Source: Actinomycetota bacterium
GTDB lineage: Bacteria > Acidobacteriota > Blastocatellia > Chloracidobacteriales > Chloracidobacteriaceae
Assembly (NCBI GenBank): GCA_041917435.1
Contig: JAYRXR010000207.1
Location: 1 to 64,000, forward strand
Length of the DNA stretch: 64,000 nt
Direction: 5' to 3'
Positions 1 to 35,580 of the stretch are shown here, one piece after another. Numbering within the stretch: the first letter of the stretch is position 1; every line of letters starts with the position of its first letter. Position numbers and translations under genes: made by a program. Under the pieces are notes generated by a model. The model was not told the DNA's origin. It did no database searches and was given only the letters and a program-made list of their open reading frames with translations.

Positions 1-105
1 ACGCGAAATTTTTTTCCCCGGTAGCCGTGCCGTAAACGACACGGCTACGTTCAAGGCGTCAGCTACGCGACGCCAATACATACTGTCCAATTCCCGTGGT
101 CTGAT

Positions 106-567: not shown

Positions 568-1160
568 CGGTTTGTCTCCTCCGTTCCGGTTGTCACCGGT
601 ACGCACGTGTAGGTATTGAAGACGATGCCGGACCGAAACGCCTGCGACTCGACCAGTTCGAATGACCGCGCCGGAGTTCCCTCCGAGAAAAGGCGTTTCC
701 CCCTGCCCAACAGAACCGGGTAAACGGCCAGCACCACTTCATCCGCCAGCCCCAGTTCGAGCAGCCTCGATGTCAGCGTGGAGCTTCCCCAGAGAATGAG
801 GTCCGGACCGCCCTGCGACTTGAGACGGTGAACACCCGCTTCGAAGTCGGGAGCGACGGCCTCGAACGGCCCCCATTCAAGGCTCTCCGGGCGATGGGTC
901 ACGACAAACTTTGTCGCCGCGTTGAGCCGGTCCGCCATCGGGCCGCCTGGCGCATTCGGCCAGTAACCCGACCAGATGTCGTAGGTTCGCCGACCGAGCA
1001 GCAGGTCGAACCGTTCGCCCTGGACGGCCAGAACGGCATCACGTCCGGCCGGGGAGCGATAGGGCGCGGTCCAGTCGCCGTGGGGAAAGTCGTCGTCATC
1101 GGCGGAGTGCTGGATCACGCCGTCCAGCGAAATGTGTTCAATGATTTTGAGTTTTCTCAT
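564..1160 (-). CDS. dihydrofolate reductase-family protein (RibD C-terminal domain-like)
   Basis: ORF 564..1205 with start chosen at ATG 1158-1160 (MRKLKIIEHISLDGV...). The N-terminus and the 'DEVVLAVYPVLLGRGKRLF' motif are typical of the YwjB/RibD_C DHFR-like family. It is translationally coupled to the VOC gene downstream. Confidence 0.6.
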   Translation of the reverse strand: MRKLKIIEHISLDGVIQHSADDDDFPHGDWTAPYRSPAGRDAVLAVQGERFDLLLGRRTYDIWSGYWPNAPGGPMADRLNAATKFVVTHRPESLEWGPFEAVAPDFEAGVHRLKSQGGPDLILWGSSTLTSRLLELGLADEVVLAVYPVLLGRGKRLFSEGTPARSFELVESQAFRSGIVFNTYTCVPVTTGTEETNR

Positions 1161-1331
1161 TTCAGTCACCTTTTTCCGTGGTTGGAAGGTGCGAGAAAGC
1201 GCCACCCTGGCCTGACCGGGTGCCGCCGCCGGGTCAGGTCAGGTGTGATTTCAGCCTCGCTCGGCGCTCACCATGCGGTTGTGCCCCCGCGTCATCCGGA
1301 ATTCCCGCGGAGGCACCCCAAAATCATTTCT

Positions 1332-1745
1332 TCACGGTTTCGCTTCAACGAATTGCGCAAAGTTGTTCAAAATGGACTGCCACCCCTGTTGCTGTTGCTC
1401 GATGGCGTGTTCGGTTTCGGCATCAAACGTAACGCGCACGGTCACGCCCTTGTCTTCGGCAATGAACCTGACCGATGCCGCGCGGTCGCCAAAGGCAAAC
1501 TCAAGCAGTTCATTCGGGACCACTTTCGTGTAGGTCCCTTCAAAGTCGAAGCCGACACTGCCGTCCCTGGCTTCCATGCGGGATGAGAACCGGCCGCCCA
1601 CACGCAGATCGACGGTGGACCTGGTGGTGTGCCAATCGTCGCTGGCCGCGTTCCAATGCATGATGTCACCAGGCGTCGTGTAGGCACTCCAGACCTTGGC
1701 GACAGGGGCGTTGACAAACGTTTCAACGGTAAGTTTCGTGGACAT
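1332..1745 (-). CDS. SRPBCC/AHSA1 (activator of Hsp90 ATPase homolog)-like protein
   Basis: 137-aa ORF whose sequence (ETFVNAPVAKVWSAYT...HW...FDFEGTYT) matches the AHSA1/SRPBCC fold family. Confidence 0.55.
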   Translation of the reverse strand: MSTKLTVETFVNAPVAKVWSAYTTPGDIMHWNAASDDWHTTRSTVDLRVGGRFSSRMEARDGSVGFDFEGTYTKVVPNELLEFAFGDRAASVRFIAEDKGVTVRVTFDAETEHAIEQQQQGWQSILNNFAQFVEAKP

Positions 1746-1825
1746 GATTTTCCTTTCGTTTCAGTACTTCGTCGTTTTTTTTCACGCTTTCCCGAGTTGA
1801 ATCGGGTGGAGCCGGTCACCGCGAT

Positions 1826-2251
1826 TCATTCCTCGCCGGACGCGCTGATCATCCAGCCGACGCCGAACCGGTCGGTCACCATTCCGAAGCAGGGCGACCA
1901 GAACGTTTTCCCAAGCGGCATCTGCACGCTTCCCCCCTCGGCCAGTGCCTTGAACACTTCATCAGCCCGAGCTTCAGTGGGAAATGCGAGGGAAACACGG
2001 AATCCGTCAAAACTCGGCTCGGCGCACAGGCCGTCGGAAGCCATCAGGATGGCCCCGTCAATCGTCAGGGTGGCGTGCATGATCTTGTTTTCGGAGCCTT
2101 CCGGCAGCGCGCCGTCCGGATGCGGCTCGGGGCTGTCTTTGAACCGCATCAGGAACTGAACCTTCGCCCCGATGGCGTGTTTGTAGTGTTCGATGGCTTC
2201 CTCGCAGCGACCGGCGAAGAACAGATAGGGATGAATCAACGTATTCGACAT
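1826..2251 (-). CDS. VOC-family protein (PhnB-like)
   Basis: ORF 1826..2314 with start at ATG 2249-2251 (MSNTLIHPYLFFAGRCEEAIEHYK...TFWSPCFGMVTDRFGVGWMI). It is a second PhnB-like paralog in the cluster. Confidence 0.6.
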   Translation of the reverse strand: MSNTLIHPYLFFAGRCEEAIEHYKHAIGAKVQFLMRFKDSPEPHPDGALPEGSENKIMHATLTIDGAILMASDGLCAEPSFDGFRVSLAFPTEARADEVFKALAEGGSVQMPLGKTFWSPCFGMVTDRFGVGWMISASGEE

Positions 2252-2285
2252 GGGTTTTTCCTTTCGTTCCTTTTGAACTTTCGTT

Positions 2286-2642
2286 TTATTGGTTGGGAAG
2301 TCCCGCGACTTCAATCACGGGACGAACTTCGACCGTGCCCACGCGGGCGCCGGGAATCCGGGAAGCGACGGCAATCGCTTCATCGAGATTTTCGGCGTCG
2401 ATGAGAAAGAAGCCGCCGAGGTGTTCGCGCGTCTCGGCGAAGGGACCGTCCGTGACCAGCCGCTTCCCTTCACGTATCCGTACGGAGGTTGAAGTGGAAA
2501 CGGGATGGAGCGGCGCGGTCGCCAGAAACTTGCCATTTTCGTGGAGCTGTTGCGCCAGTTGGGCGGATTCCTCGTAACAGTGCCGGCGTTCCGTTTCGTC
2601 GAGGGCGTTTTCCTCAAGGTAGATCAACAGGGCGTACTTCAT
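2286..2642 (-). CDS. YciI-family (DGPF domain) protein
   Basis: 118-aa ORF (MKYALLIY...[20 protein letters not shown]) with typical YciI-like features. Confidence 0.6.
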
Positions 2643-2728
2643 TTTCGAATGCCTCCTTTTCCGGTTTCATGGGTAAGTCGAACGGCAAACGCGAAAATCG
2701 ACACCTTCGAAAAATTTTTTTCACGACC

Positions 2729-4051
2729 ATGAACATTTCCGCGTTTTCGAATGTCACCAGCGCCATTGAAACGGTGTATCACATCGACTGGGGGCGGATC
2801 GTGTCGCTTCTGATTCGGGATTTCGGCGATTTCGATCTGGCGGAGGAATCCGCGCAGGAAGCGTTCGCCGCCGCCGTGACCCAGTGGGAACGCGACGGAA
2901 TTCCCGAGATTCCGGGGGCGTGGATGCTTCAGACCGCGCGGTACAAAGCCATCGACCGGATTCGGCTCAGAACCCGACAGGCTGAAAAACTTGAAGCCCT
3001 GGCTTCATCCGGATTGCTGCCGACCACCACCGAATTGCAGTCGGAAATCGGTGAAATTCCCGACGATCGCCTGCGGCTCATCTTTACCTGCTGTCACCCG
3101 GCGCTTTCCCCCGAAACACGGGTGGCGTTGACGCTGCGGATGCTGGGCGGACTCGAAACCGAGGAAATCGCCCGCGCGTTTCTGGTTCCAACGGCCACGA
3201 TGGCGCAGCGCCTGGTCCGGGCCAAGAAGAAGATTCGCGACGCGGGCATTCCCTATCGCGTCCCCGACACGGATGAACTCCCTGAACGGCTGGACGCGGT
3301 GCTGACCGTCATTTACCTGATCTTCAATGAAGGATACGCCGCGACCAGTGGCGAGAATCTGGTCCGGGCGGACTTGTGCGGGGAAGCCATCCGCCTCGCC
3401 CGCCTGACGCGGGAACTCCTCTCGCCCGCGCCGCCCGCCGAATGCACCGGCCTGCTCGCGCTCATGCTCCTGCACGACGCGCGACGCGACGCGCGGATGG
3501 ACGCTGAAGGCAATCTGATTCTGCTCGAAGACCAGGACCGTTCCCGCTGGAATCACCGCCAAATCGAGGAAGCCTTGCCGCTGGTCGAGGAAGCGGCGCT
3601 CGGCGGACCCTACGGCGTACAGGCGGCGATTGCGGCGGTTCATTGCCGGGCAGCGAGGGCGGAAGACACCGACTGGCAACGCATCGCCCTGCTTTACGGC
3701 ATCCTTGAAAGGCTTCATCCCTCGCCCATCGTCACCCTCAACCGGTCGGTGGCCGTGGCGATGGCGGACGGACCGGACCGGGGGATTGAAATCCTTGACG
3801 GGCTGGCGGATGAACTCGCCGAGTATCACCTTTTCCACGCGACGCGGGCGGATTTCCTGCGCCGGCTCGGGTTGAAGGATGAAGCGGCGCAAAGCTACGC
3901 GCGGGCGCGCGACCTCGCGACGAATGAACGCGAGCGAACCTTCCTTGAACGCCGGTTGAGGGAACTGAACGTCACAGGGAAAAGCGATGGCCGGATTCCG
4001 TCAGCTCAGAATTTCACCGTGCCGGATGCGGGCGAGACGTTCCGCGAGTGA
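2729..4051 (+). CDS. ECF sigma factor with long C-terminal extension (ECF42-like)
   Basis: ORF 2489..4051 with start set at ATG 2729 (MNISAF...), after the divergent YciI gene. Sigma-70 region 2 ([13 protein letters not shown]...W) and region 4 ([26 protein letters not shown]) are followed by a ~200-aa helical/TPR-like extension. Adjacency to DGPF/YciI genes is the known ECF42 context. Confidence 0.7.
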
Positions 4052-4771
4052 AGTCGGCGTGACGCCCATCATCCGGGTGTAATCACGCGACAGATGCGCC
4101 TGATCGGCGTAACCGGACTCGGCGGCGATGTCGGCCCAGCCGAGCGAATCCCCGACCAGCTTGATGGCGCTCCGTCGCAGGCGGCGAATCCGGGCGAATT
4201 CCTTCGGCGTCAGGCCCACCAGTTCGATGAACCGCCTCCGGAACTGACGCTCGCTCAACCCCGCCGCCGCCGCCATGGAAGAAACCGTTTCATCCGTTTC
4301 GCCGATCCGGTGAACGGCCGCCGCCAACGGATCGGGTTCGAAGCCGACCGTTTTCACAACGTTCAACAACGCTTCATCGAACAGCCCCGCCGCGCGTTCC
4401 GGGCGGTCCGCGGTTTTCAATCGTTCAAACAGCGGCCCGGCGAAATCGGGAAAAACGGCCCGGGCATCGCCGACCTGATCGCGGAGCGCGGCGAGGGAAA
4501 CGCCGAACAGTATTTTGGCGGCTCCCGGCTGAAACCGGATTCCCCAGACCGAGTCGCCGGGTCGGGTGGGCGGGTTGTGGGCTTCGGTCCGTGGCCCGAC
4601 GAAGGCAATCGTCTCGAAAAACCGGCTTCGAATATAGGCAATCGAGAGCATCCCATCCGGGATGACCCGATGGTCATAGGGCATCGGCGCGTCCTCCGGC
4701 ACCGAGAACGCCCAATAACTGTTGACCACCTCCGTCAGGTCCGACGTCGGCTCGAATTCTTCATATCGCAT
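4001..4771 (-). CDS. AraC-family transcriptional regulator
   Basis: C-terminal HTH_18 pattern ([33 protein letters not shown]...). The start at ATG 4769-4771 (MRYEEF...) is uncertain. Confidence 0.6.
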
Positions 4772-4917
4772 GATTTTTTCGTGAGAAAGGAATCCGCAAA
4801 CTGATTGTAGGGACGAATCAGGGTTTCGAAAACTCCGGGAACCATTTTCCGAAGGTCGCGTCAGTTCCTCCCGAATCGTCATTCGATCCACACAGAAGTA
4901 CATTCGCGGAGGTCACC

Positions 4918-7395
4918 ATGAAATCCCTCACTCGCGGCCTGTTGCTGCTTTTTCTCGTCGTCAGTTGCGCCGCCGCCGTCACGGTCCGGTTCAGAACCTC
5001 GGACACCAGCGTTTCGGCGGACACCAATTCAAAACAGAATCCCGGAGAACTGCTCTGCTTCACCGACAAGGGCGAGGCCAGGGGCGTCTGCCCGCTCAAG
5101 CATACCGACGTGAAGGCCGACATCACCGGCTTTCTCTCGCGCGTGACCGTCACGCAGGAATTCGAAAACCCTTTTAAAGAAGCCGTCGAAGCCGTCTATA
5201 CGTTTCCCCTTCCGCAAAACGCCGCCGTGGACGACATGACCATGACCATCGGCGACCGGACCATCCGCGGCCTCATCAAACGCCGCGAGGAAGCGAAGGA
5301 AATCTACGAAGCGGCCAAACAGGCCGGAAAAACCGCGTCGCTGCTCGATCAGGAGCGCCCGAACATCTTTACCCAGTCAGTCGCCAACCTGACGCCGGGC
5401 GCGAAGGTCACCATCACCATCAGTTATGTCGAAACCCTGAAATATGAGGCGGGGACATACGAATTCGTCTTTCCGATGGTCGTCGGACCGCGCTACATCC
5501 CCGGTCAGCCGACCGGGAAGCAGGCGGGCGGGACCGCTCCCGACACGACACAGGTTCCGGATGCCTCGCGCGTCACGCCCCCGGTCACTCCGGCGGGCAC
5601 GCGCGCGGGCCACGACATTTCGCTCACCGTCAATCTCGACGCGGGCGTTCCCATCACCAACTTCACGAGCGTCAATCATAAAACCGAAGCCGACCGCTTC
5701 ACCGCGAACCGGGCGCGCATCACGCTCCAGTCGGCGAATGAAATTCCGAATCGGGATTTCGTCCTCAAGTACGACGTGGCCGGCAAGAAAATCGAAGACG
5801 GCCTGTTCGTTCACCGGAGCAACAAGGGCGGTTACTTCACGCTCATGCTGCAACCGCCCGACCGCGTGATGCCGACCGACGTGACGCCCAAGGAACTCGT
5901 CTTCGTCATCGACACGTCCGGCTCGATGATGGGCTTCCCGCTCGACAAGGCGAAGGAATGCATGAAGCTCGCGATGGACAACCTCTATGACTACGACACG
6001 TTCAACCTGATAACCTTTTCGGGCGACACGCACCTGCTGTTCCCCGGCCCGGTTCAGGCCACGCGTGAAAACCTTGCCAAAGCGCAGGCGTTTCTCGACG
6101 GCCAGCGCGGCGGCGGCGGAACTGAGATGATGACGGCCATTCGGGCCGCGCTCGAACCTTCGGATAAGCAGGACCACGTCCGCATCGTCTGCTTCATGAC
6201 CGACGGCTATGTCGGGAACGACTTTGAAATCATCGGCGAAATTCAAAAACACCCGAACGCCCGCGTCTTCTCCTTCGGCGTCGGCAATTCCGTGAACCGT
6301 TTCCTGCTCGACGGCATGGCTCGCGAAGGACGCGGCGAAGTCGAATACCTTTCACTGAATGAAGACGGCTCGGCGGCGGCCAAGCGCCTGCACGAACGCA
6401 TCCGCAACCCGCTCCTGACCGACATTTCGCTCGATTTCGGCAATCTGCCGGTGACCGACGTCTATCCGAAACGCATCAACGACCTCTTTTCCGCCAAGCC
6501 GGTTTTCGTCACCGGCCGCTTCACCGGCCCCGGAAAGGGCGCGATCAAGCTGCGCGGAAAAATGATGGGCAAACCCTACGAACGCGAAATCCCGCTGACA
6601 TTGCCGGAGAACGAACCAAACCACGATGTTCTTTCGGGACTGTGGGCGCGCAACCGCATCGACGACCTGATGGCGCAGGATTTGCCCGGTCTCCAGCGCG
6701 GAACGATGAAGCCCGAAATTCAGGAAGTCATTACCCAGATCGGCCTTGAATACCGGCTGATGACGCAGTTCACGTCGTTCGTGGCGGTCGAGGAAACGGT
6801 CGTCAACGAAGGCGGCCAGCAGCGGCGGATTCAGGTCCCGGTTGAACTGCCCGAAGGCGTCAGCCGCGCCGGAATCGAAGGCGTGACGGATGAAGAAGCC
6901 GACGGGCTGCCGGCCAATCGTTACTACAGTGGCGGGGGAATCGCTGCGGGCCGGAAGAGTCAGCCGATGAAGCGCCGCATTGCGCCGAAGTCTCCGCCAA
7001 CGGGGGTTTACCGGGATTCCAGGACCATCAACAACATTCCGACCGCGAAACCAGCCGAGAAAGTGGCGACGCCGGATGTCGATACCAAGCCGGACCCGAA
7101 CACGGTTCGCAGTCCGAAACTTCATCCGACGCTGGCCGCCATCGTCGAACGGCTGCAAAAGAAATCCGCCGCCGTCCCGCCCGAGGAAGCCCGCGTCGTC
7201 AAGGACGGCAAGGTTGAAGTTCAGGTGATGTTGACCGACGGTTCGCCCGCGACCATTGAAAAGCTCAAGGCGCTCGGCGCGGAATTCGTCATCACCCCCA
7301 ACGGCAAGCGCATCGTGGTGATGAAGATCGCCATCGAAAAACTCGATGCCCTGTCGAAGCTGGCGGAAGTGCGCTACGTCACGCCACAGAATTGA
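4918..7395 (+). CDS. secreted VIT-domain plus von Willebrand factor A-domain protein
   Basis: GGAGGT RBS 4 nt upstream, signal peptide (LLLLFLVVSCAAA) and an N-terminal VIT region. The vWA MIDAS motif DTSGSM sits at ~5920 and a long C-terminal extension follows. Confidence 0.75.
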   Translation: MKSLTRGLLLLFLVVSCAAAVTVRFRTSDTSVSADTNSKQNPGELLCFTDKGEARGVCPLKHTDVKADITGFLSRVTVTQEFENPFKEAVEAVYTFPLPQNAAVDDMTMTIGDRTIRGLIKRREEAKEIYEAAKQAGKTASLLDQERPNIFTQSVANLTPGAKVTITISYVETLKYEAGTYEFVFPMVVGPRYIPGQPTGKQAGGTAPDTTQVPDASRVTPPVTPAGTRAGHDISLTVNLDAGVPITNFTSVNHKTEADRFTANRARITLQSANEIPNRDFVLKYDVAGKKIEDGLFVHRSNKGGYFTLMLQPPDRVMPTDVTPKELVFVIDTSGSMMGFPLDKAKECMKLAMDNLYDYDTFNLITFSGDTHLLFPGPVQATRENLAKAQAFLDGQRGGGGTEMMTAIRAALEPSDKQDHVRIVCFMTDGYVGNDFEIIGEIQKHPNARVFSFGVGNSVNRFLLDGMAREGRGEVEYLSLNEDGSAAAKRLHERIRNPLLTDISLDFGNLPVTDVYPKRINDLFSAKPVFVTGRFTGPGKGAIKLRGKMMGKPYEREIPLTLPENEPNHDVLSGLWARNRIDDLMAQDLPGLQRGTMKPEIQEVITQIGLEYRLMTQFTSFVAVEETVVNEGGQQRRIQVPVELPEGVSRAGIEGVTDEEADGLPANRYYSGGGIAAGRKSQPMKRRIAPKSPPTGVYRDSRTINNIPTAKPAEKVATPDVDTKPDPNTVRSPKLHPTLAAIVERLQKKSAAVPPEEARVVKDGKVEVQVMLTDGSPATIEKLKALGAEFVITPNGKRIVVMKIAIEKLDALSKLAEVRYVTPQN

Positions 7396-7474
7396 AGATT
7401 GAAGATTGAAGATTTTCGATTGAGGAAAGGGCGGACCGATTCTGGCCCCAATCTCAAATCGAAAATCTTCAATC
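7396..7474. repeat. STR-armed hairpin (caatcgaaaatcttc family); likely bidirectional terminator
   Basis: Arm gattgaagattgaagattttcgattgag (7396-7425) pairs with ctcaaatcgaaaatcttcaatc (7450-7474) across a ~24-nt loop. The module tcttcaatcaaaaatcaccgcattgtcgcYggc is repeated at 7466-7498 and 7568-7600. The element lies between convergent gene ends. Confidence 0.5.
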
Positions 7475-7582
7475 AAAAATCACCGCATTGTCGCTGGCCC
7501 CCTGAAGATCGAAGGCTTTTAAATTGAACTTGTGACGGTCACCCCCTTCTTCAATCGAAAATCTTCAATCTTCAATCAAAAA

Positions 7583-10500
7583 TCACCGCATTGTCGCCGG
7601 CTCCCGGACGTCTTCCACCGGGGCCGGCGTTTTTTCGTTCTCCGCCAGCGGAAGCCGAATCCGGAAACAGCTTCCCTTGCCCGGTCCGTCCGATTCGGCG
7701 CGAATCGTGCCGCCGTGGGCCTCGACATAACTCTTCGCGATGGAAAGGCCCAGCCCGGAACCGCGCGTCGCGAATTCGAATTTCCCCGACTTGTGCCTGG
7801 TCGTGTCGGCGGTGGTGTAGAACCGGTCGAAAATCCGGTCGAGTTCGCCGGATTCGATGCCGATTCCCTCATCCCGGACGGTCAGATTGATGAGCGTTCC
7901 CTCACGGATGAGTCCGATTTCGACCCTGCCGCCGTCGGGCGTGAACTTGACCGCGTTCTGAACGATATTTCCCAATACCAGCCTCAATTTTTCGCGGTCG
8001 GCGTCGATCAGGAACGGTTCGTCGCACTCGACCTCGACGGCGAGCTTGCGCCGTTCGGCATGGGGTTCGAAATCCGCCACGGTCTCGCGCACGACCTCGC
8101 CCAAATCGAACCGCGACCGGTTCAACGTCACCTCCCGCCGGTCAAAGCGCAGGATTTCGACCAGGTCGTTGAACGTTCCCGTCAGACGGTCCACCACGGA
8201 AAGGCAGGTTTCGAGCGACCGCTGCTGCGGCTCGGTCAGCGGGCCGAACAGCTTCTCCAGCATCGCTTCGCTGTGCCCGCGCAGAACCGTGAGCGGCGTC
8301 CGCATCTCATGCGATGCCACCGAGATGAAATTGGTCTTCATCCGGTCGAGTTCCTGAAGCCGGCTCGTGACCTCCTGCTCCTTGCGATACAGGGTTTCAA
8401 GTTCCTTCATCGACTCGACCACGAGCAGGTTTTTCGCTTCGAGTTCGCCGTAAAGATGGGCGTTTTCAATCGCGACCGCCGCCTGATGGGCAAGGGCTTC
8501 GAGGATTTCACGGTCGGCGTCGGTGAACTTCTCCGCCGCGGGCTTGCGCCGGACATCCAGCACACCGACCACGTCCCCGGCGCGCGACCGGATGGGTACG
8601 TCGATCATGCCGTAGGCGTAACGCGAGGCGAACGGCTCGGGAAACGCCAGAATGTCCCCGACCGCCGGATCGTTGGCGATGATGGCCAGACCGGTTTCCG
8701 CCACCGTCCCGACAATTCCCTTTCCGAGCGGAAGCGAAACGCGACATTCCTTCCAGCGGCCCTCCGACCACAAATGCCGAAAGGTAACCGCATCCCCCGC
8801 AACGATCCCGATTCCCCCCGGTTCGCCGCCGACGAGGTTCGCGCTTTCCTCCGCGATGGTTTCAAGCACCGTTTCGAGATCGAGGCCGGAATTGATGACC
8901 CGCGTACTGTGGAGGAGTCGCCGAAGATAACGGATGCGTTCCTCCTGCCGTTTTCTGACCGTCCGGTAACGCCAGGCGAACAGTCCGTAAATCCCGCCGA
9001 TAATCGCCATCGAGTATAAAAAGTAGGCCAGCGGCGTCCGCCACGGCGCGGGCCGTACCGAAAAGGCCAGCACGACCGGTCCCGTCACGTTTCCGGCGTA
9101 ATCGCGTCCCCAGACCTTGAACTGATAGTCGCCGGGGCCGAGGTTGGTGTATTCGCGTTTCCCTTCCCGGCTCCAGTCGGACGGGTCGGGTTCAAAGTTG
9201 ACGAGCTGCGTGCGGTAGCGCGTGTCGCCGCCGCGAAAAAGACTCATCAGGGTGAATTCGAAGGTCAGTGAATTGTGCCGATGGTCGAGGACCTCGCCCG
9301 TTCGCAAAACGGGCCGGTCCGGGCCGAGCGGGGCAAACGCGCTGATCTGGAGCGGCTTCGGGATCCGGTCGAGGATTTCACCAGCCAGATCGAGTTGCGC
9401 CGCGCCGGCGGAAGTACCCACCCAGAGTCGCCCCGCGCCGTCGGCCAGCCCGCTTCCCGTCAGACATTCGTTGCTCGGCAGACCGTCCTCGGTCGTGAAT
9501 ACATAGGCATCGCCCACCGGGTCCCGTTTCGGCCCGCCGCCGTAATCGGGCGTCAAACGGGCAATTCCCTTGTTTGTACAGAAATACAGCCGCTGCCTCG
9601 AATCCGCGAGGATGCGGTAAACCGTGTTGTTGGGCAGGCCCGGCGCGGTGGCTTCATTCAGCCCGTGCCAGACATCATCCGCCCGGTCGAGATTGCGCCA
9701 CGCCGCCCCGGCCCCGTTGGTGCCGACCCACAGGATCGTATCGCCGTCCGGCGACCGCGTGGAAGTCAGGCTCAACACCACGTTGTTCGGCAAACCGGTC
9801 GTCATGTCGAAAACCGACCACCGGTGACCGTCAAAGCGGGCGAGGCCCCCGCCGTAGGTTCCGGCCCAGATGTCGCGGCGTCCGTCGCGGGCCACGGTTT
9901 CAAGCAGACAGTTGACCCCGTTGTTCGGCAGATCGCCCTGCTGCTTGTTGTACGTTTTCCAGACACCGTCCTCCAGACGGCTCAATCCGTTGTAGGTCCC
10001 GAACCACATGACGGACTTCCCGGCGGCGGTCCGGGTTTCGAGAATGCTCCGGATTTCAGGATGAACCAGTCCGTCGGCGGTTTTGAAAACCTCCATTTTT
10101 TCCCGCGCGAAGCGAACTCCTCCGCCCTGCGTGCCGATCCACAGAACCGGCGTTCCGTCCGGCTCATGAGTTTCATAAAGAACGCTGATCCGGTCGTCCG
10201 GCAGTCCGTTTTTCCCATGGTAACGTCGCCATCCGCCCGGCCCCGACCGAAACAGCCCGTCCGTCGCCGTCCCGAACCAGAATTCCGATCCCCCGGCCGA
10301 GACGGAACGGATGAACGAATGAACCAGAAACCGCTCGGGGCGCATCTCCGGGGGCGGTTCGAACATGCGCCAGGACCGCAGGGGATAAAACCCCAGCCCG
10401 TTGCCGTTCGAACCGATCCAGAGCGCCTCGAAACCATCGGCGGTCGTGATTTTGAGAATTGAATTGATGTCCCCCCCGGCCAGCCCGCGCCGGTTCGCGA

Positions 10501-11452
10501 AGGAACGCCAGACCCCGCCCCGCAAATAGGCGAGTCCGCGATTGGTGGCCGCCCATAAAACTTCATTCCCGTCGCGACCGCGACAACTGGCCAGCGCCGT
10601 CACGTTGTCGCTCGGCAGGCCGTCCTTCGTCGTGACGACCTGCCAGCGGTCGTTTTCAAACCGGCACAGCCCCCCTCCGAACGTCCCCGCCCAGACTTTC
10701 CACGTACCATCCACCGCGGACACGGTCAGACTTGAAACGTAGTTGTTCGGCAATCCGCGCGCCGCGCCGAGTTCGGTCCATTCATCGTTGCGATAACGCA
10801 GCACGCCCGCGTTCCGCGTACCGACCCAGAGCGACGTCAGACCGTCCGGGTCGCGCGTTTCCAGCAGCGACAACACGATGTCGTCGGTCAGCCCGAACCC
10901 CGCCGTCGCGAAGGTGGACCATTTTCCTTCCGCGAACCGCAGCAGGCCGCCGCCGAAGGTCCCGGCGTACAGCACCGGCTTTCCATCAGTCCCGACCGTT
11001 TCCAGCAAACTGAAGATGAGAAGGTTGGTCAGCCCGGCGGACGTGTCATAGACCGTCCATTCCCCGTCGAGGTATTTCAGGACGCCGCCGCCGTTCGTGC
11101 CGAACCACATCCCCCCGTCCTTCGACGTCGCCATCGCCATCACGTCGTTGGAGACAATCCGGTTGGGCAGCCGCACTTCATGCCAGTTCCGCCCGTCGAA
11201 ATAGGCCACGCCGTCTCCGGTCCCGACCCACAGTGCGCCGCTCGAATCGACCTTTACCTGACGAACATTGTTTTGCGGAAGCCCGTTCTTGTCGTCGAAG
11301 ATCTGCGCCGGCGCGTCGTTGTTGAAAATAGAGGCCCCCTCCTCGACCGGACGCGCCTCGGCGGGACCGGCGGGCGCGGCCATTGCGGAAGCCCATGCCG
11401 CCAGACAGACCGTCAGAAATACGAGAAGCCGAAGTCGGTTCACAGGCGACAC
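7583..11452 (-). CDS. sensor histidine kinase with periplasmic two-component-regulator propeller repeats, Y_Y_Y, TM, GAF, HisKA and HATPase_c
   Basis: 1289-aa ORF with a GTG start and a signal peptide. It has ~700 aa of propeller repeats (GLPNN/WVGT motifs), a Y_Y_Y domain, one TM helix, a GAF domain, an H-box (SHEMRTPL) and N/G boxes. There is no receiver domain. Confidence 0.8.
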   Translation of the reverse strand: MSPVNRLRLLVFLTVCLAAWASAMAAPAGPAEARPVEEGASIFNNDAPAQIFDDKNGLPQNNVRQVKVDSSGALWVGTGDGVAYFDGRNWHEVRLPNRIVSNDVMAMATSKDGGMWFGTNGGGVLKYLDGEWTVYDTSAGLTNLLIFSLLETVGTDGKPVLYAGTFGGGLLRFAEGKWSTFATAGFGLTDDIVLSLLETRDPDGLTSLWVGTRNAGVLRYRNDEWTELGAARGLPNNYVSSLTVSAVDGTWKVWAGTFGGGLCRFENDRWQVVTTKDGLPSDNVTALASCRGRDGNEVLWAATNRGLAYLRGGVWRSFANRRGLAGGDINSILKITTADGFEALWIGSNGNGLGFYPLRSWRMFEPPPEMRPERFLVHSFIRSVSAGGSEFWFGTATDGLFRSGPGGWRRYHGKNGLPDDRISVLYETHEPDGTPVLWIGTQGGGVRFAREKMEVFKTADGLVHPEIRSILETRTAAGKSVMWFGTYNGLSRLEDGVWKTYNKQQGDLPNNGVNCLLETVARDGRRDIWAGTYGGGLARFDGHRWSVFDMTTGLPNNVVLSLTSTRSPDGDTILWVGTNGAGAAWRNLDRADDVWHGLNEATAPGLPNNTVYRILADSRQRLYFCTNKGIARLTPDYGGGPKRDPVGDAYVFTTEDGLPSNECLTGSGLADGAGRLWVGTSAGAAQLDLAGEILDRIPKPLQISAFAPLGPDRPVLRTGEVLDHRHNSLTFEFTLMSLFRGGDTRYRTQLVNFEPDPSDWSREGKREYTNLGPGDYQFKVWGRDYAGNVTGPVVLAFSVRPAPWRTPLAYFLYSMAIIGGIYGLFAWRYRTVRKRQEERIRYLRRLLHSTRVINSGLDLETVLETIAEESANLVGGEPGGIGIVAGDAVTFRHLWSEGRWKECRVSLPLGKGIVGTVAETGLAIIANDPAVGDILAFPEPFASRYAYGMIDVPIRSRAGDVVGVLDVRRKPAAEKFTDADREILEALAHQAAVAIENAHLYGELEAKNLLVVESMKELETLYRKEQEVTSRLQELDRMKTNFISVASHEMRTPLTVLRGHSEAMLEKLFGPLTEPQQRSLETCLSVVDRLTGTFNDLVEILRFDRREVTLNRSRFDLGEVVRETVADFEPHAERRKLAVEVECDEPFLIDADREKLRLVLGNIVQNAVKFTPDGGRVEIGLIREGTLINLTVRDEGIGIESGELDRIFDRFYTTADTTRHKSGKFEFATRGSGLGLSIAKSYVEAHGGTIRAESDGPGKGSCFRIRLPLAENEKTPAPVEDVREPATMR

Positions 11453-11682
11453 TCCGACGCGAAACTCGACGGGTCAGATCCATTCGGGCAATCGTTCGAA
11501 AACGATGGCCGGCACTTCGATGACAAACAGGAATGCGCCGATTATCCCGGTTTCCCTTCGAGTGGCAAGAAATTCGCGCTCATCCGACGTGTTTTTTCAG
11601 GAATGTCACCCGACTTGAGTCGTCGCCCAGCCATCCGGAAGTACAATGGAATCAGAATTCGGCCCGCTTCAGGAGGTCCCCG

Positions 11683-12105
11683 ATGTCATCCCCGATTTCA
11701 CTGGCACTCAAGGCGGCAATCGTCTGGGTTCTGATGATGGCGTGCGAGACGGTCCACGGCATTTTGCGCGTGTTGTACCTTCAGCCGCGCGTCGGCGACC
11801 GGCTTTCCCGTCAGATCGGGATGCTGACCGGTTCGGCCATCATCTTCGGCGTGGCCTATCTTTGTATCGGCTGGCTGCGCCCCGAAACGCCGCGCCGGAT
11901 GGTCGCGGTCGGGTTCCTGTGGGCCGCGCTGACCTTCGGTTTTGAAATCCTGATGGGACTGGCGCAGGGATTTCAGTGGGAACGGATTCTGGCGGAGTAC
12001 GACCCGTCGCGCGGCGGCCTGATGGCCTTCGGACTGGCTTTCCTGATCGCCGTCCCGGCATTGGCGGTTGGTCTTTGGGAAAAACGTCGCAAGTGGCGAA
12101 AATGA
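11683..12105 (+). CDS. small integral membrane protein (hypothetical)
   Basis: Start at ATG 11683, preceded by AGGAGG at 11671-11676. The protein has four predicted TM helices and ends in KRRKWRK. No family was recognised. Confidence 0.4.
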   Translation: MSSPISLALKAAIVWVLMMACETVHGILRVLYLQPRVGDRLSRQIGMLTGSAIIFGVAYLCIGWLRPETPRRMVAVGFLWAALTFGFEILMGLAQGFQWERILAEYDPSRGGLMAFGLAFLIAVPALAVGLWEKRRKWRK

Positions 12106-12127
12106 AGTTGAATGATGGCCGAACGAC

Positions 12128-12192
12128 GGTATGGAAACCCGACCGTCAGGGAGGGAAACGCCTGCCCTCCCTGACGGTCGGGTTTCCATACC
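12128..12192. terminator. perfect 28-bp inverted repeat with 9-nt loop between convergent genes
   Basis: ggtatggaaacccgaccgtcagggaggg-aaacgcctg-ccctccctgacggtcgggtttccatacc. No flanking T-tract is present. Confidence 0.5.
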
Positions 12193-12215
12193 GGTTGAAA
12201 CTGCCTCTCCTCCCG

Positions 12216-13067
12216 CTATTTCCTTGATTGGAGGAACATTGCCAGAACCGCCACCGCCAGCCCGGCGGCCACCGCTCCAAATACAAATTTCCGGCTGACC
12301 GTGGTTTGCGGTTCGTCGCCGTCCTTGCGGGAAAATTCAAGGCATGCGAGCGCGACGACCAGCACGCCGCCGAAGCCGCCGAGCAGGAGCGCCAGCCGGT
12401 CGCGCGGTGCGCCGCCGACCAGATTCAGCGCGTTGACCGGTAAAAGCCACGGATAGTACTTCCCGATTTTCGCGCTCGCGGCAAACAGCGCGAAAAACGT
12501 CCCGCCGACGCCCGTCCCGAGCGCGAGGGTGAAGCTCGACCAGCGCAGGCTGACCCACGTGTGAATGGCGACGATGAGCCACGCGGCAATCCAGAGTTTC
12601 AATCCGCCGAGAAAAAGCTGGCCGAATTCGGGCGGCGGTCCGGGCGGGAGTCCGGGATGGGTGCGTACGAGGACGAACCCAACCACCACCGCGTAGACGC
12701 ACAGCACGAGCGTCCCCGCCCCGGCGAGGAAATTTGCAACGATGAACTTGGCGAGAAAATAAACGTGACGCGGCAACGGCAAGGCCAGCAGGTGTTTCCA
12801 TTGCCGCTCGCCATGTTCGATTCCGGCCAGCAGCGCGGTTTCGAGCGTCACGAACAACGGGAGCATGAAAATCGCCCAGACGCTCAGGGTGTTTTGAAAA
12901 ACCGCTTCCCAGAGCTGTCCGGCGGTCGGCGCGCCTTTGCGCTGGTTCAGTCCGATGAAGAACTGAAGCAGCGCGACCAGCGCGGGCGTGACGAAAACCA
13001 TGCGGACGGCGAGCGTCCGTCGGAGTTTGAACAGTTCGGCGTGGAGCGCCCGAAACAGCGAGTTCAT
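12216..13067 (-). CDS. ABC-2 family transporter permease
   Basis: 283-aa protein with six TM segments. It overlaps the upstream ATPase gene by 4 nt. Confidence 0.65.
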   Translation of the reverse strand: MNSLFRALHAELFKLRRTLAVRMVFVTPALVALLQFFIGLNQRKGAPTAGQLWEAVFQNTLSVWAIFMLPLFVTLETALLAGIEHGERQWKHLLALPLPRHVYFLAKFIVANFLAGAGTLVLCVYAVVVGFVLVRTHPGLPPGPPPEFGQLFLGGLKLWIAAWLIVAIHTWVSLRWSSFTLALGTGVGGTFFALFAASAKIGKYYPWLLPVNALNLVGGAPRDRLALLLGGFGGVLVVALACLEFSRKDGDEPQTTVSRKFVFGAVAAGLAVAVLAMFLQSRK

Positions 13068-13987
13068 AAAGCGCGATCCTCCGCCGCGGATTCGTTCGTC
13101 ATCTCAAGAAAAATGTCTTCCAGCGAAGTCCGGGAAAGCGAGAGATGAAAGACGCCGATGCCGCGTTCCACCAGAACGGCGTTGGCCCGGACGGCGTCTT
13201 CCTCCGACGCGCCGGGCAGAACCAGCTGCCCTTCGGCACCGATTTCAACCTGAAACTTTGCCTCTTTCAGACAGTTCAGCGCGGTTTCGGGGTCGGTGAC
13301 GCCGATGGCGACGTGCCGTTTCTGGCGGGCGCCGAGTTCATCGAGCAAGCCCTGAAACAGCAACCGTCCCCGATGAACAATGGCGATGTGGCCGGCGATC
13401 TGCTCGACTTCGCTTAAAAGATGACTTGAAAGAAACACCGTGATGCCGAATTCGTTCGGCAGCCGACGGATGAGGTCGCGCATTTCATGAATGCCCGCCG
13501 GATCGAGTCCGTTGGTCGGTTCATCCAGAATCAGCAGATCGGGCTGATTCAACAGGGCCAGCGCCAGTCCGAGCCGCTGGCGCATGCCGAGGGAATATTC
13601 CCGGACGGGTCGTCCGGCGTCCTTCACCAGCCGGACAATGTCGAGCGCCCGGTCGATGAGGTTTCGTTCCGCGCCGAGCAGGCGGCGGGTGACTTCGAGA
13701 TTTTCGCGCCCGGTCAGATGCGGGTAGAGCGAAGGGCTTTCGACCAGCGCGCCGACTCGCCGCATCAGCGCCAGTCGTTGTTCAAAAAGGTTTTCGCCGA
13801 ACAATTTCACCGCGCCGCCGTCGGGCCGAATCAGCCCGAGCAGCATGCGGATGGTCGTGGTTTTTCCCGCGCCGTTCGGTCCGAGAAAGCCGAAAACCCC
13901 GGCGGACGGTACGCGCAGGTTGACGGCATCCACGGCCACGCGGTCGGCGAAGCGTTTGGTCAGATCACCGGTTTCAATGGCCAGCAT
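13064..13987 (-). CDS. ABC transporter ATP-binding protein
   Basis: Walker A (GPNGAGKTT), ABC signature (LSLGMRQRL) and Walker B (LILDEPT) motifs are present. Confidence 0.8.
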   Translation of the reverse strand: MLAIETGDLTKRFADRVAVDAVNLRVPSAGVFGFLGPNGAGKTTTIRMLLGLIRPDGGAVKLFGENLFEQRLALMRRVGALVESPSLYPHLTGRENLEVTRRLLGAERNLIDRALDIVRLVKDAGRPVREYSLGMRQRLGLALALLNQPDLLILDEPTNGLDPAGIHEMRDLIRRLPNEFGITVFLSSHLLSEVEQIAGHIAIVHRGRLLFQGLLDELGARQKRHVAIGVTDPETALNCLKEAKFQVEIGAEGQLVLPGASEEDAVRANAVLVERGIGVFHLSLSRTSLEDIFLEMTNESAAEDRAL

Positions 13988-14103
13988 TTGGTTGAATCCT
14001 CTTTTTCAAAACGAACGCGAGGGCGTTTCATTAACACCCGGCGAAAAAAATCGGGACGCCCCGCAAGGAGCATCCCGAAATGTCGTGACCGATGGCGTAC
14101 GGA

Positions 14104-15825
14104 TTACGACTGAACGGGCGCGCTGGCCCCGTTGCCCTGTTTCGCGCCGCGCAGCAGCGTCGCCGCCAGCGCGGGCAGGGTTTCCGAACCGTTTGAACCG
14201 GAAACCAGCACGTCCGGCGCGATCTTGATGTTGCCGTCGCGGACGATCTTCAGGGTTTCAATCGTCACCAGCCCTTCGCGACCGATCTGGTGGCCGAGCA
14301 GTTCGTAGGCGTCCTTGTTGGCCTCGGCGATGAGCCGAATCTTGCGGGCCTCGCCGGAAGCCTCGGCGGCGGCGGCTTCGGCGTTCGACTTCGCAATGTC
14401 CACCGCGGCGGCGGCGGCCACGATGTCGGTCTGCTTGTCGGCCAGCGCGCGGGCCTTTTCGAGTTCGCGGCGCGTTTCCTCGGCGATGGTCTGTTCGCGG
14501 AAGGTTTTTTCGCGCTCCTTCGCCAGAAAACGGTCGGTCTGGGTCTTGAGCAGTTCATCCGGAATCCCGACGTTCCCGATAAGCACGTCCACCGTCTCGA
14601 TACCGTATTCGCGCAACATTCCCGTCGTCACAACCTTGGCGTTGGCCTGCTGCTGCGAACGGTTGTTGAGAAAATCGAGCGCGTCGCAGCTTTCGGCGTT
14701 GTTGCGGAAGGTCGCGCCGATGGCCGGATGAATGACGCGGTCGATGGCGTTCTGAATCGAGCCGATTTTCGAAACGACGACCGGGGCCTGTTCCTTCGGG
14801 ACGCGAATCACGACCTTGACGTCCACCGGGAACGAAAAACCGTCGCGGCTTTTGACCGTGATGGAATCGAGCGGCGTTTCGGAATTCATCGTGTTCCAGT
14901 CGATGGTCGCGTTGAGCGTCGAAATCGGAAACACGACGTAGGCAATCGGGTTCAGGTAGTAGGTATTCGGCTCGATCACCGTCTTCAGCACGCCGCGGTA
15001 GCCTTCATCCACGAGATCGGGCGTCCGTCCGTCTTCACCGAAGGGCGGCAGCACGCCGACGTTCGAACGGATGACGCCGACTTCACCGATGTTGATGACC
15101 GTCGCGGGCTGAACCGTCACTTCAAAAAGCAGCGGGTTGATGTAGTACATCCCCGGTTTGAGAATATCGAGCTGCGGCCCGCGCTGCCCGCCGTTGTCGA
15201 GAAATGGCTGGCCGTCCTGAAAATCGCAATGCCCCTTCACCGCGTCGCCGAGAATCTGTTCCTCGCGCAGTTCAAGCCCGTCGAACGCCTCGACGATCCC
15301 GATTTCGCCGGTCGAAACCTTGACCGCTTCGGCGAGTTGAATGTTGAACAGCCGGGTGTTGATGCGGTACTGCCCCGGCGTCAGGATTTCCACCTGCGGT
15401 CCGCGCTGCCCGCCTTCGCGCAGGAACGCGACGGCGTCCTGAAAGTTGCTGTGGCCGTGAATCCGCTTGCCAAGTAATTGACCGGGCTTGAGTTCGCCGC
15501 CGTCAATCGAGGTCAGCGTCGCGACAAACCCTTGCGGAACCTGAATGAGCGGCACGCGGGTCACGCGGTAAAACGGCGCGAGGAGGATGTGCAGCCCCGG
15601 CGCGAGGGTTTTGGCCTGCATCCCCTGTTCGCCGCTGGCGGCTACGACCCGGCCGGGCGCGAGTCGCGCGCCGAGGATTTTCTTCTCCACCAGTCCGACC
15701 TGGTGTTCGGGAATCATGTGGAGCGATGAAACCACCCAGACAAACACCACGAAAGCCACGAAACCGATCAGGAACACGGCCGGACCGAAATCGAACATGA
15801 GAAGAAACAGAAAGTGAACGGTCAT
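14104..15825 (-). CDS. flotillin/SPFH (band 7) family protein
   Basis: Start at ATG 15823-15825 with an AAGGAGA RBS. The protein has an N-terminal TM, an SPFH domain and a coiled-coil Ala/Glu-rich C-terminus typical of YqiK/flotillin. Confidence 0.75.
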   Translation of the reverse strand: MTVHFLFLLMFDFGPAVFLIGFVAFVVFVWVVSSLHMIPEHQVGLVEKKILGARLAPGRVVAASGEQGMQAKTLAPGLHILLAPFYRVTRVPLIQVPQGFVATLTSIDGGELKPGQLLGKRIHGHSNFQDAVAFLREGGQRGPQVEILTPGQYRINTRLFNIQLAEAVKVSTGEIGIVEAFDGLELREEQILGDAVKGHCDFQDGQPFLDNGGQRGPQLDILKPGMYYINPLLFEVTVQPATVINIGEVGVIRSNVGVLPPFGEDGRTPDLVDEGYRGVLKTVIEPNTYYLNPIAYVVFPISTLNATIDWNTMNSETPLDSITVKSRDGFSFPVDVKVVIRVPKEQAPVVVSKIGSIQNAIDRVIHPAIGATFRNNAESCDALDFLNNRSQQQANAKVVTTGMLREYGIETVDVLIGNVGIPDELLKTQTDRFLAKEREKTFREQTIAEETRRELEKARALADKQTDIVAAAAAVDIAKSNAEAAAAEASGEARKIRLIAEANKDAYELLGHQIGREGLVTIETLKIVRDGNIKIAPDVLVSGSNGSETLPALAATLLRGAKQGNGASAPVQS

Positions 15826-16346
15826 CGAAGGTCTCCTTCGGAAGACGGCGACTCGACGACGAGCGCCGTGAAGGGCGGTCGGTAGTCCTCGCACCACCGC
15901 CCGAAAAGCCCGGCGACCCGCCGGGAAACGACGTCGATGGATTCGGCAATCGTCCGGGGCGGAACGTTCGTCTGGCTGAAATCGGTGGGCTTCGGCGTTT
16001 CATCCGAAAAATCGAGGGTGACGCGGTATCGCGCGCCGGTTCCGGTCGAATGGAGAAATTCGACCCGAAAATGCCTCAACAACCGGCAGCGATGGACGCC
16101 AGTGGGCGTCGTCTCGGTCCCGAAAATACGGACGGAACCGAGGTAAACATCGGTCGGAAGCGGACGCGGCGATTCAACGTGGAGTTCGAAGGTGGCGATT
16201 CGCGGCGATGCCGGGGCATCGAGTTCGAGGGAGAGGACGGTGAGGCGAATCGCGTCACGAGGAAACATAAAAGCAGGTGATGAGGGAAGGAAAACAATGT
16301 CGGTCTCATCGACCCGCGAGCGGCAAATTACTCCCGTGATTTTCAA
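15822..16346 (-). CDS. hypothetical protein upstream of flotillin
   Basis: 174-aa ORF with high GC3, coupled to the flotillin gene by a 4-nt overlap. It has no TM helix, unlike typical NfeD partners, and no recognisable family. The start is uncertain (alternative at 16268). Confidence 0.3.
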   Translation of the reverse strand: MKITGVICRSRVDETDIVFLPSSPAFMFPRDAIRLTVLSLELDAPASPRIATFELHVESPRPLPTDVYLGSVRIFGTETTPTGVHRCRLLRHFRVEFLHSTGTGARYRVTLDFSDETPKPTDFSQTNVPPRTIAESIDVVSRRVAGLFGRWCEDYRPPFTALVVESPSSEGDLR

Positions 16347-17624: not shown

Positions 17625-17703
17625 GAGTTGCTCCGGCACTTGGTTCACCACTCCTTTCCCAAGGAAAATTGAAAAAACGGTTCCTTCCAATGCGATCCCG
17701 GAC

Positions 17704-18015
17704 GCTCAAATCCCGTCCCCGCGTCGTTCGAACCGGTTCCAGCACCGCTCAATCGCGTCCCAGCGTCGTTCAAACCGGTTCCAGCACCGATCAATCCCGT
17801 CCCAGCGTCGTTTGAACCGGTTCCAGCACCGATCAATCCCGTCCCAGCATCGTTCAAACCGGTTCCAGCACCGCTCAATCCCGTCCCAGCATCGTTTGAA
17901 CCGGTTCCAGCACCGCTCAATCGCGTCCCAGCGTCGTTCAAACCGGTTCCAGCACCGATCAATCCCGTCCCAGCGTCGTTTGAACCGGTTCCAGCACCGC
18001 TCAATCGCGTCCCCG
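17704..18015. repeat. 42-bp tandem repeat, ~7.5 copies, in divergent intergenic region
   Basis: The unit aaccggttccagcaccgMtcaatcScgtcccagcRtcgttYR starts at 17731, 17773, 17815, 17857, 17899, 17941 and 17983. Each unit consists of two related ~21-bp halves. Confidence 0.8.
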
Positions 18016-35569: not shown

Positions 35570-35580
35570 GAGTTCTCTTT

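Follow-up and report, generated by a model that had tools for sequence, protein, structure and literature searches.

Heptamer inverted repeats anchored at stop codons in a Chloracidobacteriaceae genome: an acidobacterial family of intergenic heptamer repeats with a possible role as RNA hairpins at gene ends

Introduction

The window analysed here is a stretch of 64,000 nucleotides from an acidobacterial genome (positions 1 to 64,000 of contig JAYRXR010000207.1, GenBank assembly GCA_041917435.1; Blastocatellia, Chloracidobacteriaceae), which carries at two loci long hairpins whose arms are inverted tandem arrays of 7-nt units. These elements, referred to here as family A, are an acidobacterial heptamer-repeat family within the known, functionally unexplained class of intergenic heptamer repeats, and were previously undescribed in this group; no paper giving the arm sequences in a bacterial setting came up in a literature search. 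With regard to their role, we tentatively favour, at somewhat less than even confidence, that family A forms one of the unit families within a genome-wide set of heptamer inverted repeats acting as RNA hairpins in 3' untranslated regions (3'UTRs) or between cistrons, much as repetitive extragenic palindromic (REP) elements do.

The two family A loci

The 18-mer core of the arms, AATCGAAAATCTTCAATC, occurs exactly seven times in the window, at 7404 (minus), 7457 (plus), 7553 (plus), 45502 (minus), 45593 (plus), 45636 (plus) and 45678 (plus). All these positions lie within the two loci, and no copy was obtained in 100 shuffles. The 23-mer on which the original prediction had been based likewise gives 10 matches at up to 3 mismatches in the window, every one of them in the same two loci. 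The hairpin family is therefore real, with folds at z-scores from -6 to -9.5, and the proposed recurrence of the locus 1 core at 45481-45705 holds, as the core is found at both loci and nowhere else in the window. The unit is a heptamer in two alternating variants, GATTGAA and GATTTTC, which account for 45% and 34% of the units in 126 arms; the units of 14-15 nt described at first are in fact two heptamers.

Locus 1 lies between two convergent genes and comprises the following features:

4918-7395, plus strand: VIT/VWA gene, with its stop codon TGA at 7393-7395
7391-7608: whole span of locus 1, between the convergent VIT/VWA and sensor histidine kinase genes
7391-7425, plus strand: 5' arm (ATTGAAG three times, ATTTTCG, ATTGAGG)
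7421-7438, plus strand: non-repeat inner extension of the stem, pairing with 7536-7552 at 13 of 17 positions
7446-7482, plus strand: 3' arm copy R1, with AATC-type units
7449-7608, plus strand: tandem duplication with a period of 103 nt (7449-7505 and 7552-7608, 86% identical)
7536-7585, plus strand: 3' arm copy R2, with the kinase stop codon in its last unit
7583-11452, minus strand: sensor histidine kinase gene, with its stop codon at 7583-7585
7595-7635, plus strand: canonical terminator-like hairpin, with a 12-bp G+C-rich stem followed by U6

Both flanking stop codons fall within the outermost heptamers, that of the VIT/VWA gene (7393-7395) in the first ATTGAAG unit. Tandem Repeats Finder (TRF) reports a period of 7 at 7391-7414 (ATTGAAG, 3.4 copies, 100%) and again at 7548-7577, while the inverted repeats pair 7397-7438 with 7536-7577 (42 nt, 90%) and 7397-7425 with 7446-7474 (29 nt, 79%). 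The 5' arm and R1 form a compact hairpin: the RNA of 7388-7482 folds at -39.7 kcal/mol (z -6.6) with a stem of about 22 bp, in agreement with the stem of about 21 bp that had been predicted, and that of 7388-7610 at -78.1 kcal/mol (z -6.2). No shuffle matched either fold. The 103-nt duplication repeats the 3' (right) arm together with the final eight or so kinase codons, and is missing from the sister genome introduced below. Just past the repeat hairpin, inside the final codons of the convergently oriented kinase gene, the terminator-like hairpin folds at -25.9 kcal/mol (z -2.8); its loop exceeds 8 nt, for which reason the consensus terminator scan missed it.

Locus 2 extends from the pyrG stop codon to the ridA start codon, and is composed of these features:

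45066-45458, minus strand: ridA, with its ATG at 45456-45458
45475-45520, minus strand: the one AATC-type arm in the sense transcript of the locus
45521-45586, minus strand: locus-specific spacer with a small internal hairpin
45587-45702, minus strand: three tandem 42-nt units, in an array adjoining the pyrG stop codon
45701-47422, minus strand: pyrG, with its stop codon at 45701-45703

The sense RNA of this locus thus reads three tandem GATT-type 5' arms, one per 42-nt unit (45587-45616, 45628-45659 and 45671-45701), then the spacer, and then the AATC-type arm, which ends about 17-22 nt ahead of the ridA ATG and leaves a GGAG. TRF finds a period of 14 at 45480-45520 and 45587-45701, and a period of 42 at 45576-45702 (3.0 copies, 91%). 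Several pairings of 30-46 nt are found at this locus, among them the inverted repeat 45482-45511/45587-45616 (30 nt, 90%), and the minus (sense) strand of 45459-45703 folds at -99.1 kcal/mol (z -9.5), again unmatched by any shuffle. The three tandem units proposed for this locus are present, each of them 42 nt long (6 x 7) and not 40. The placement at convergent gene ends stands for locus 1 but not for locus 2, since pyrG and ridA are co-directional, whereas the contact with stop codons is general: all three neighbouring ones (7393-7395, 7583-7585 and 45701-45703) touch the arrays.

Polarity, position and pairing

The architecture follows a fixed polarity. Among adjacent GATT/AATC arm pairs, GATT precedes AATC in 49, and the 5 reversed cases all lie at junctions between tandem hairpins. 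When all unit families are considered, strongly folding regions have a purine-rich 5' partner 38 times and a pyrimidine-rich one 14 times, compared with 22 and 20 in weakly folding regions. The counts of position and context rest on crude gene calls based on G+C content at third codon positions (GC3). By our tally, an inward-pointing stop codon lies no more than 25 nt from the start of about 30 of about 47 family A hairpins, and strong folding is seen in 23 of 31 convergent, 40 of 125 co-directional and 5 of 33 divergent intergenic regions. In the general layout, some 3-6 GATT-type heptamers start at or overlap a gene stop and are followed by a locus-specific spacer and by an AATC-type array, which ends at the stop of a convergent gene or 6-22 nt ahead of a co-directional start codon. 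The spacers, of 20-170 nt, have no similarity between loci other than among local tandem copies.

On its own, an arm folds weakly (mean -4.9 kcal/mol, with G.U pairs only), and the arms are exchangeable between loci in a pairing test. As a separate observation, one GAUU unit can pair with another by means of G.U pairs, and GAA with UUC, so that GATT-type arms can pair among themselves in RNA (-5 to -12 kcal/mol for single arms), something of which AAUC-type arms are incapable.

Two further ideas were considered and discarded. The idea that the polarity exists because the ORF-proximal arm (ORF, open reading frame) provides stops in all three frames fits GATTGAA and AAGGATG, but fails for CAGTGGT, where TGA lies in the complementary arm, and for AATGCGG and CACAAAGG, which contain no stops. 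Nor does any likeness between the units and the tRNA T-loop, anti-Shine-Dalgarno sequences, Chi or uptake signal sequences (USS) hold across families.

Dispersal across genomes and phyla

The 18-mer was searched for in one genome per species, a total of 596 Gb, in which it is present in exact form at more than 85 loci; about 17 matches would be expected by chance according to our arithmetic. At least 31 of these loci belong to the metagenome-assembled genome (MAG) Blastocatellia NZW_1522 (JBDRAL01), the orthologous VWA/kinase locus included, and 10, among the matches listed, to a second acidobacterial MAG. Judged by its sequence, NZW_1522 is the sister genome of that of the window: it is syntenic with positions 100-16300 at 82-90% nucleotide identity, and the VWA proteins are 93% identical. 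The dispersal across the genome that had been proposed for the family is thus borne out, and it is also visible in assemblies. Four short-read contigs (L086, L087, L093 and L101), from strains identical or closely related to that of the window, begin or end within the arms, as a multi-copy repeat disrupts short-read assembly.

Among the matches listed outside the two MAGs, 36 of 42 carry additional in-phase GATT units, and an AATC array lies downstream in 8 of 42 and upstream in none. Complete hairpins are found in Aequorivita, Limnoglobus and an Akkermansiaceae MAG, and direct arrays with family A units in Oscillatoriaceae and Desulfobacterales, with AATCTTC/AATCGAA units in an Oscillatoriaceae MAG (L031). 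The GATTGAA/GATTTTC units occur in Acidobacteriota, Verrucomicrobiota, Planctomycetota, Bacteroidota, Desulfobacterota and Cyanobacteria. A scan of viral contigs for a phage vector returned one isolated, chance-like match. The possibility that the window is itself part of the MAG with most matches was rejected: that comparison gave only arm matches of 34-45 nt, and the MAG is a sister genome.

The PyrG of the window has 98% identity with a protein encoded on Logan contigs and about 80% with that of Chloracidobacterium; an exact-match look-up of the protein returned no record. Along with the two Acido-Lenti-1 RNAs of the window (see below) and the synteny with NZW_1522, this places the window in a Blastocatellia genome. 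In a strain with a 98% identical PyrG, a two-gene cassette missing from the window, encoding proteins of 104 and 82 aa, stands between the pyrG stop and a family A arm (L086 2602-3199, equal to L087 2137-2734); by eye, the first of these genes looks ParB/nuclease-like.

Other unit families with the same architecture

Beyond the original prediction, at least five unit families share this architecture in the window, and the 14-nt unit pair of family A recurs in other phyla. Repeat hairpins occupy about 12 of the 35 or so intergenic regions of at least 50 nt in the window, that is, about a third, and the unit families of the window recur at MAG loci. The elements of the other families are as follows:

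18093-18182: inverted-array hairpin of CACGGAG-type 8-mers
22460-22580: CAGTGGT family, spanning stop to start of two co-directional genes on the plus strand
24134-24212: inverted-array hairpin of the CACAAAGG/CACGAAGA 8-mer family (CACAAAG/CACGAAG)
35581-35657: CACAAAGG/CACGAAGA 8-mer family, occupying the 93-nt gap from the stop at 35664-35666 to the next start at 35568-35570, minus strand
37724-37870: inverted-array hairpin of the AAGGATG family
42922-42951, minus strand: lone AAGGATG-type arm immediately behind a stop codon, for which no partner was found
49377-49525: AAGGATG family, GAAGGAT nine times facing TTCATCG three times, between convergent genes
55215-55338: AATGCGG family, with arms complementary at 32 of 32 positions, bounded by the stop codon of hpnI (55207-55209) and the ATG (55344) of the following gene, which we take to be hpnJ
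57166-57269: CAGTGGT family hairpin between convergent genes
61403-61444: heptamer array of GACTCCC type between convergent genes, of a family frequent in the sister MAG

As in locus 1, arrays may extend into coding sequence: the GAAGGAT array encodes the last seven codons and the stop of the ORF at 48254-49402 (..GRMKDEG*, 49380-49402).

Several further repeats and structures were seen in the window. A 42-nt (6 x 7) tandem repeat of 7.4 copies (91%) lies at 17703-18013 within a 646-nt spacer, and a putative ORF over it (17645-18004, minus strand) would encode 14-aa GAGTGSNDAGTGL repeats. Another repeat with a 42-nt period (GGAAAAGGTATTTC.. motif, 2.3 copies) is present at 42735-42831, in the 400-nt spacer downstream of the single AAGGATG arm; the region around it is identical in Logan contig L093. 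At 12127-12193, between convergent genes, there is a perfect 29-bp non-repeat hairpin (-65 kcal/mol). In the sister MAG (L100 17081-18398), its position is occupied by 1.3 kb that include a gene with TPR repeats, a canonical terminator and an array of the GACTCCC family. The region 40116-40320, also a convergent intergenic region, contains two inverted Acido-Lenti-1 RNA genes (Rfam RF01687, 50.3 and 46 bits; 40121-40166 minus, 40270-40315 plus), which form a 52-nt inverted repeat with 90% complementarity. Acido-Lenti-1, away from both family A loci, is the sole Rfam family above the gathering threshold in the window.

Evolution at orthologous sites

Comparison of orthologous sites has revealed that the arms change by whole units, that they duplicate locally in multiples of 7 nt, and that entire cassettes are swapped between close relatives, while the arm sequence is uniform across loci and genomes. 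At locus 1, the spacer of the sister MAG measures 92 nt and holds a plain hairpin (-50.8 kcal/mol) of left arm, 13-nt loop and right arm, with six units in the left arm against four in the window. The right arm and the end of the kinase gene (7543-7594) are identical at 52 of 52 positions between both genomes, whose flanking genes are 82-86% identical.

The spacer after hpnI provides the second case. It carries AATGCGG arms in the window, L096 and L098, and a GATGGGG/CCCCATC arm in L095, whose hpnI is 94% identical to that of the window, and in L097, which is 98% identical to L096. The cassette distribution is therefore incongruent with gene identity: the architecture has been kept, both hairpins spanning from stop to start, and the sequence family replaced. 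The complete GATGGGG hairpin (-75 kcal/mol) is observed only in L095, as the L097 contig ends inside the spacer. The exchange takes in the last hpnI codons, which read ..RNAE* in the window and ..RKMGMGDGG* in L095 and L097 (L095 3655-3685), and in L095 also the first codons of the following gene. The GATGGGG units at this site (L095 3655-3830) resemble the G-quadruplex-prone GGGGAYT repeats of Nostoc. At greater depth, the pyrG 3' flanks of Chloracidobacterium and another relative differ in synteny and contain no heptamer hairpin, so that the hairpin after pyrG is not conserved at that distance.

Relation to known repeat families

The closest known systems are the intergenic heptamer repeats of Xanthomonas (GGGAATC) and Nostoc (GGGGAYT), of unknown function, described by Rehm et al. 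in 2015 (PMC4692102). According to this study, their mean distance to the upstream ORF is 28 nt, and each genome has 70-75 of their inverted pairs in convergent orientation; they are under-represented between divergent ORFs, vary between close relatives and are mostly transcribed (PMC4692102). Family A resembles them in its tandem 7-nt units (at least 2-3 copies) at many intergenic loci near an upstream stop, in its paired opposite-strand arrays able to form a stem-loop, in its rarity between divergent ORFs, and in an array length that varies between close relatives. The Xanthomonas and Nostoc repeats occupy hundreds of intergenic loci per genome, with the G-rich strand on the coding strand downstream of ORFs. 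Unlike them, the acidobacterial lineage pairs nearly all of its arrays and maintains several coexisting unit families, and neither a 14-nt unit pair shared across phyla nor the replacement of a cassette at an orthologous site is reported for those genera (PMC4692102). Heptamers have also been presented as the commonest long simple sequence repeats (SSRs) in the 5-11 nt class, with polymerase slippage proposed as their origin (Mrazek 2007, as cited in PMC4679880 and PMC4692102). Since family A units contain no G-tracts, they cannot form G-quadruplexes; the GATGGGG family of L095 does have the G run that typifies the GGGAATC/GGGGAYT type.

The short tandemly repeated repetitive (STRR) sequences of heterocystous cyanobacteria, reportedly described by Mazel et al. 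in 1990, are said to be tandem heptanucleotides of a few families dispersed between genes, with the consensus units CCCCAGT, TTGGTCA and CAACAGT for STRR1 to STRR3. Family A shares with STRRs the tandem heptanucleotides, the intergenic dispersal and the unexplained function, but it differs in its units and in its host, which belongs to Blastocatellia rather than to Cyanobacteria; furthermore, STRRs are described mainly as direct arrays, whereas family A consists of inverted pairs of fixed polarity. Marine Beggiatoaceae, Cyanobacteria and Bacteroidetes have direct repeats of TAACTGA, patchily distributed across phyla (MacGregor 2015, PMC4679880), which are similar in that one heptamer recurs by ORF boundaries in many intergenic regions, with a patchiness that suggests transfer or convergence. 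They are nevertheless direct, lie just upstream of starts (with one inverted case) and have been proposed to act in translation, in contrast to the inverted, stop-anchored pairs of family A.

REP units are imperfect palindromes of 20-40 bp with a GTAG or CGTC tag, linked to RAYT transposases, and, like the bacterial interspersed mosaic elements (BIMEs), yield RNA hairpins on transcription (Di Nocera et al. 2013, PMC3733652). The REP-like nature attributed to the family in the original prediction is upheld in one respect, because family A shares with REP, BIME and REPIN elements a high copy number and an extragenic location downstream of ORFs, in co-directional or convergent contexts. By definition, however, these repeats are not REPs: single arms are tandem repeats and not palindromes, the spacers are unrelated, and the tag is missing, with GTAG/CGTC in 6 of 126 arms outside and 8 of 126 inside against about 10% by chance. 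The REP-like label may still apply to their function. Nor is there the common internal sequence or defined length of a miniature inverted-repeat transposable element (MITE), the spacers being 20-170 nt long and unrelated between loci. Canonical intrinsic terminators, which have a short G+C-rich stem, a loop of 3-8 nt and then a U-tract, were discarded as well, because the stems are A/U-rich, the loops long, and no T-run follows the 3' arm; consensus scans for promoters and terminators gave no site at either locus, and a search of Rfam, at gathering and E-value thresholds, returned at the two loci only sub-threshold models of eukaryotic miRNA precursors. DNA uptake sequences (DUS) and USS of Neisseria and Haemophilus are single motifs of 10-12 nt, one per genome, with a known receptor. 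Like family A, they are short sequences identical throughout a genome that form inverted pairs as hairpins at gene 3' ends; family A, by contrast, forms tandem arrays, and nothing ties the repeats of this lineage to DNA uptake.

Proposed function and alternative explanations

In the REP-like role that we tentatively favour, the element would be transcribed within the 3'UTR or intercistronic RNA and would fold into a long A/U-rich hairpin. This hairpin would block 3'-to-5' exonucleases, as REP and BIME hairpins do, and would in this way set the stability of the upstream cistron, besides insulating neighbouring genes. The non-random structure, the position near stops, the polarity and the enrichment between convergent genes all point to such a role, as do the right arm that is more conserved than the flanking genes and the architecture that survives a swap of unit family. 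By analogy, stabilisation of mRNA 3' ends by REPs would be the best model, since REP hairpins are stated to stabilise RNA 3' ends without terminating transcription (a statement in PMC12642595, citing Newbury 1987). The canonical stem with U6 that follows the repeat hairpin at 7595-7635 argues for this role rather than for a terminator. The lineage does use ordinary terminators, because strong canonical ones are found in regions free of repeat hairpins, such as the co-directional ones at 14078-14051, 50573-50541 and 58611-58582 (minus strand), and another occurs in L100. A further strong one lies at 61330-61360 (plus strand); these four terminators of the window are 12-14-bp stems with T-runs. 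The repeat hairpin between hpnI and the next gene probably lies inside an operon.

Partial hairpin-dependent termination in both directions might be an additional role. A hybrid of pyrimidine RNA and purine DNA is weak, and on either strand the C/pyrimidine-rich arm comes last, so that the stem would close over such a hybrid.

Several observations weigh against the REP-like role. It assumes that the arms are transcribed and fold in vivo. The loops are unconstrained, and arms from the same locus pair no better than foreign ones (-38.9 against -37.8 kcal/mol; 25 of 43), which means that there is no locus-specific covariation between arms. Selection on the sense RNA is not supported either, as the sense transcript folds without a clear advantage over the antisense one: sense folds better at 20 loci and antisense at 13, with 210 against 166 G.U pairs, a weak and non-significant bias, and the loci of the window are mixed in this comparison. 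A hairpin function alone leaves the recurrence of the same heptamers across loci and phyla unexplained, repeats expanding into any permissive spacer would yield the same stop-to-start geometry, and the cassette swap could reflect two independent colonisations.

These points give weight to a serious rival, which we nevertheless consider unlikely: that the arrays are self-propagating SSRs without function, which grow by slippage or unequal recombination and spread by gene conversion, the hairpin being a by-product. Such arrays would fill the intergenic space permitted to them, would halt at coding sequences and ribosome-binding sites, and would be purged from promoters. The different unit number of the locus 1 arm in close relatives (4 against 6), the extension of arrays into ORF ends and the local duplications in multiples of 7 (the three 42-nt units), together with the 103-nt duplication and the tandem hairpins in L072, L081 and L084, all suit this model, and so do the exchangeable arms, the unconstrained loops and the lack of a clear sense-strand bias; slippage has in fact been proposed for heptamer SSRs (Mrazek 2007, cited in PMC4679880 and PMC4692102). 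However, slippage alone yields neither an inverted partner nor a polarity of 49 to 0, and neither the identity of units over dozens of loci and several phyla, nor a right arm conserved beyond its flanking genes, nor an architecture kept through a family swap is explained by neutral growth. On a further reading, which we regard as quite unlikely, modular, exchangeable cassettes of strict 5'-G-rich/3'-C-rich polarity, shared across phyla, with units fixed by a putative factor or generating enzyme, work at gene ends, either in U-tract-independent bidirectional 3'-end formation or as a hairpin coupling a stop codon to the next start. The constancy of the units across loci and phyla hints at such a putative sequence-specific factor or generating process.

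If the arms served primarily as U-tract-independent bidirectional terminators, a long hairpin with a pyrimidine-rich 3' arm would free the RNA polymerase arriving from either side. The enrichment at convergent and depletion at divergent gene ends agree with this, as do the weak hybrid that the polarity would create at stem closure (from known hybrid stabilities) and the presence in co-directional regions of either a canonical terminator or a repeat hairpin. Long A/U-rich stems with loops of 20-170 nt and without a U-tract, the canonical terminator after the locus 1 hairpin in a lineage that uses such terminators, and the hairpins within likely operons (hpnI and the next gene, pyrG-ridA) make this decidedly unlikely as the main function. 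Arrays of binding sites for a sequence-specific factor of double-stranded DNA or RNA, such as a cooperative ribbon-helix-helix heptad binder, or a DUS/USS-like signal for biased uptake or recombination that builds up in inverted pairs behind genes, would account for units that stay constant across loci, genomes and phyla while the loops drift, for the strict 7-bp periodicity, and for the incongruence between cassettes and gene tree, which suggests frequent recombination. Heptad arrays bound by protein are indeed known, as in parS of pSM19035 (PMC9499535), and a heptamer-binding protein has been postulated in Nostoc (10.1101/2022.06.06.494920). Several factors would nonetheless be needed for at least five unrelated unit families with one architecture in a single genome, and the factor remains hypothetical, no candidate protein having been found, so we hold this explanation to be very unlikely. 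It is extremely improbable that this is a MITE or REPIN-like element moved by a transposase, with the arrays as its terminal inverted repeats. Dispersed copies with inverted ends, contig breaks at the arms and the two-gene cassette beside an arm in L086/L087 speak for it, but the internal sequences are unrelated and of 20-170 nt, arm length varies by whole units, single arms are not palindromic and bear no GTAG/CGTC tag, and the sole viral-contig match is isolated and chance-like. Target-site duplications were not noticed by eye, no systematic search for them having been made.

Significance

We know of no function or spreading mechanism that has been established for intergenic heptamer repeats. 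Those of the STRR type have long been recognised, and heptamers were reported in 2007 to be the dominant class of long SSRs in many bacteria. The lineage described here adds an acidobacterial case, in which the repeats are almost always stop-codon-anchored hairpins of fixed polarity, and two orthologous sites display their evolution by gain and loss of units, local duplication and replacement of a whole cassette by another unit family. These repeats also have consequences for the genomes that carry them and for their reconstruction, since they interrupt short-read assemblies, give rise to spurious ORFs and can alter the C-terminal codons of genes.

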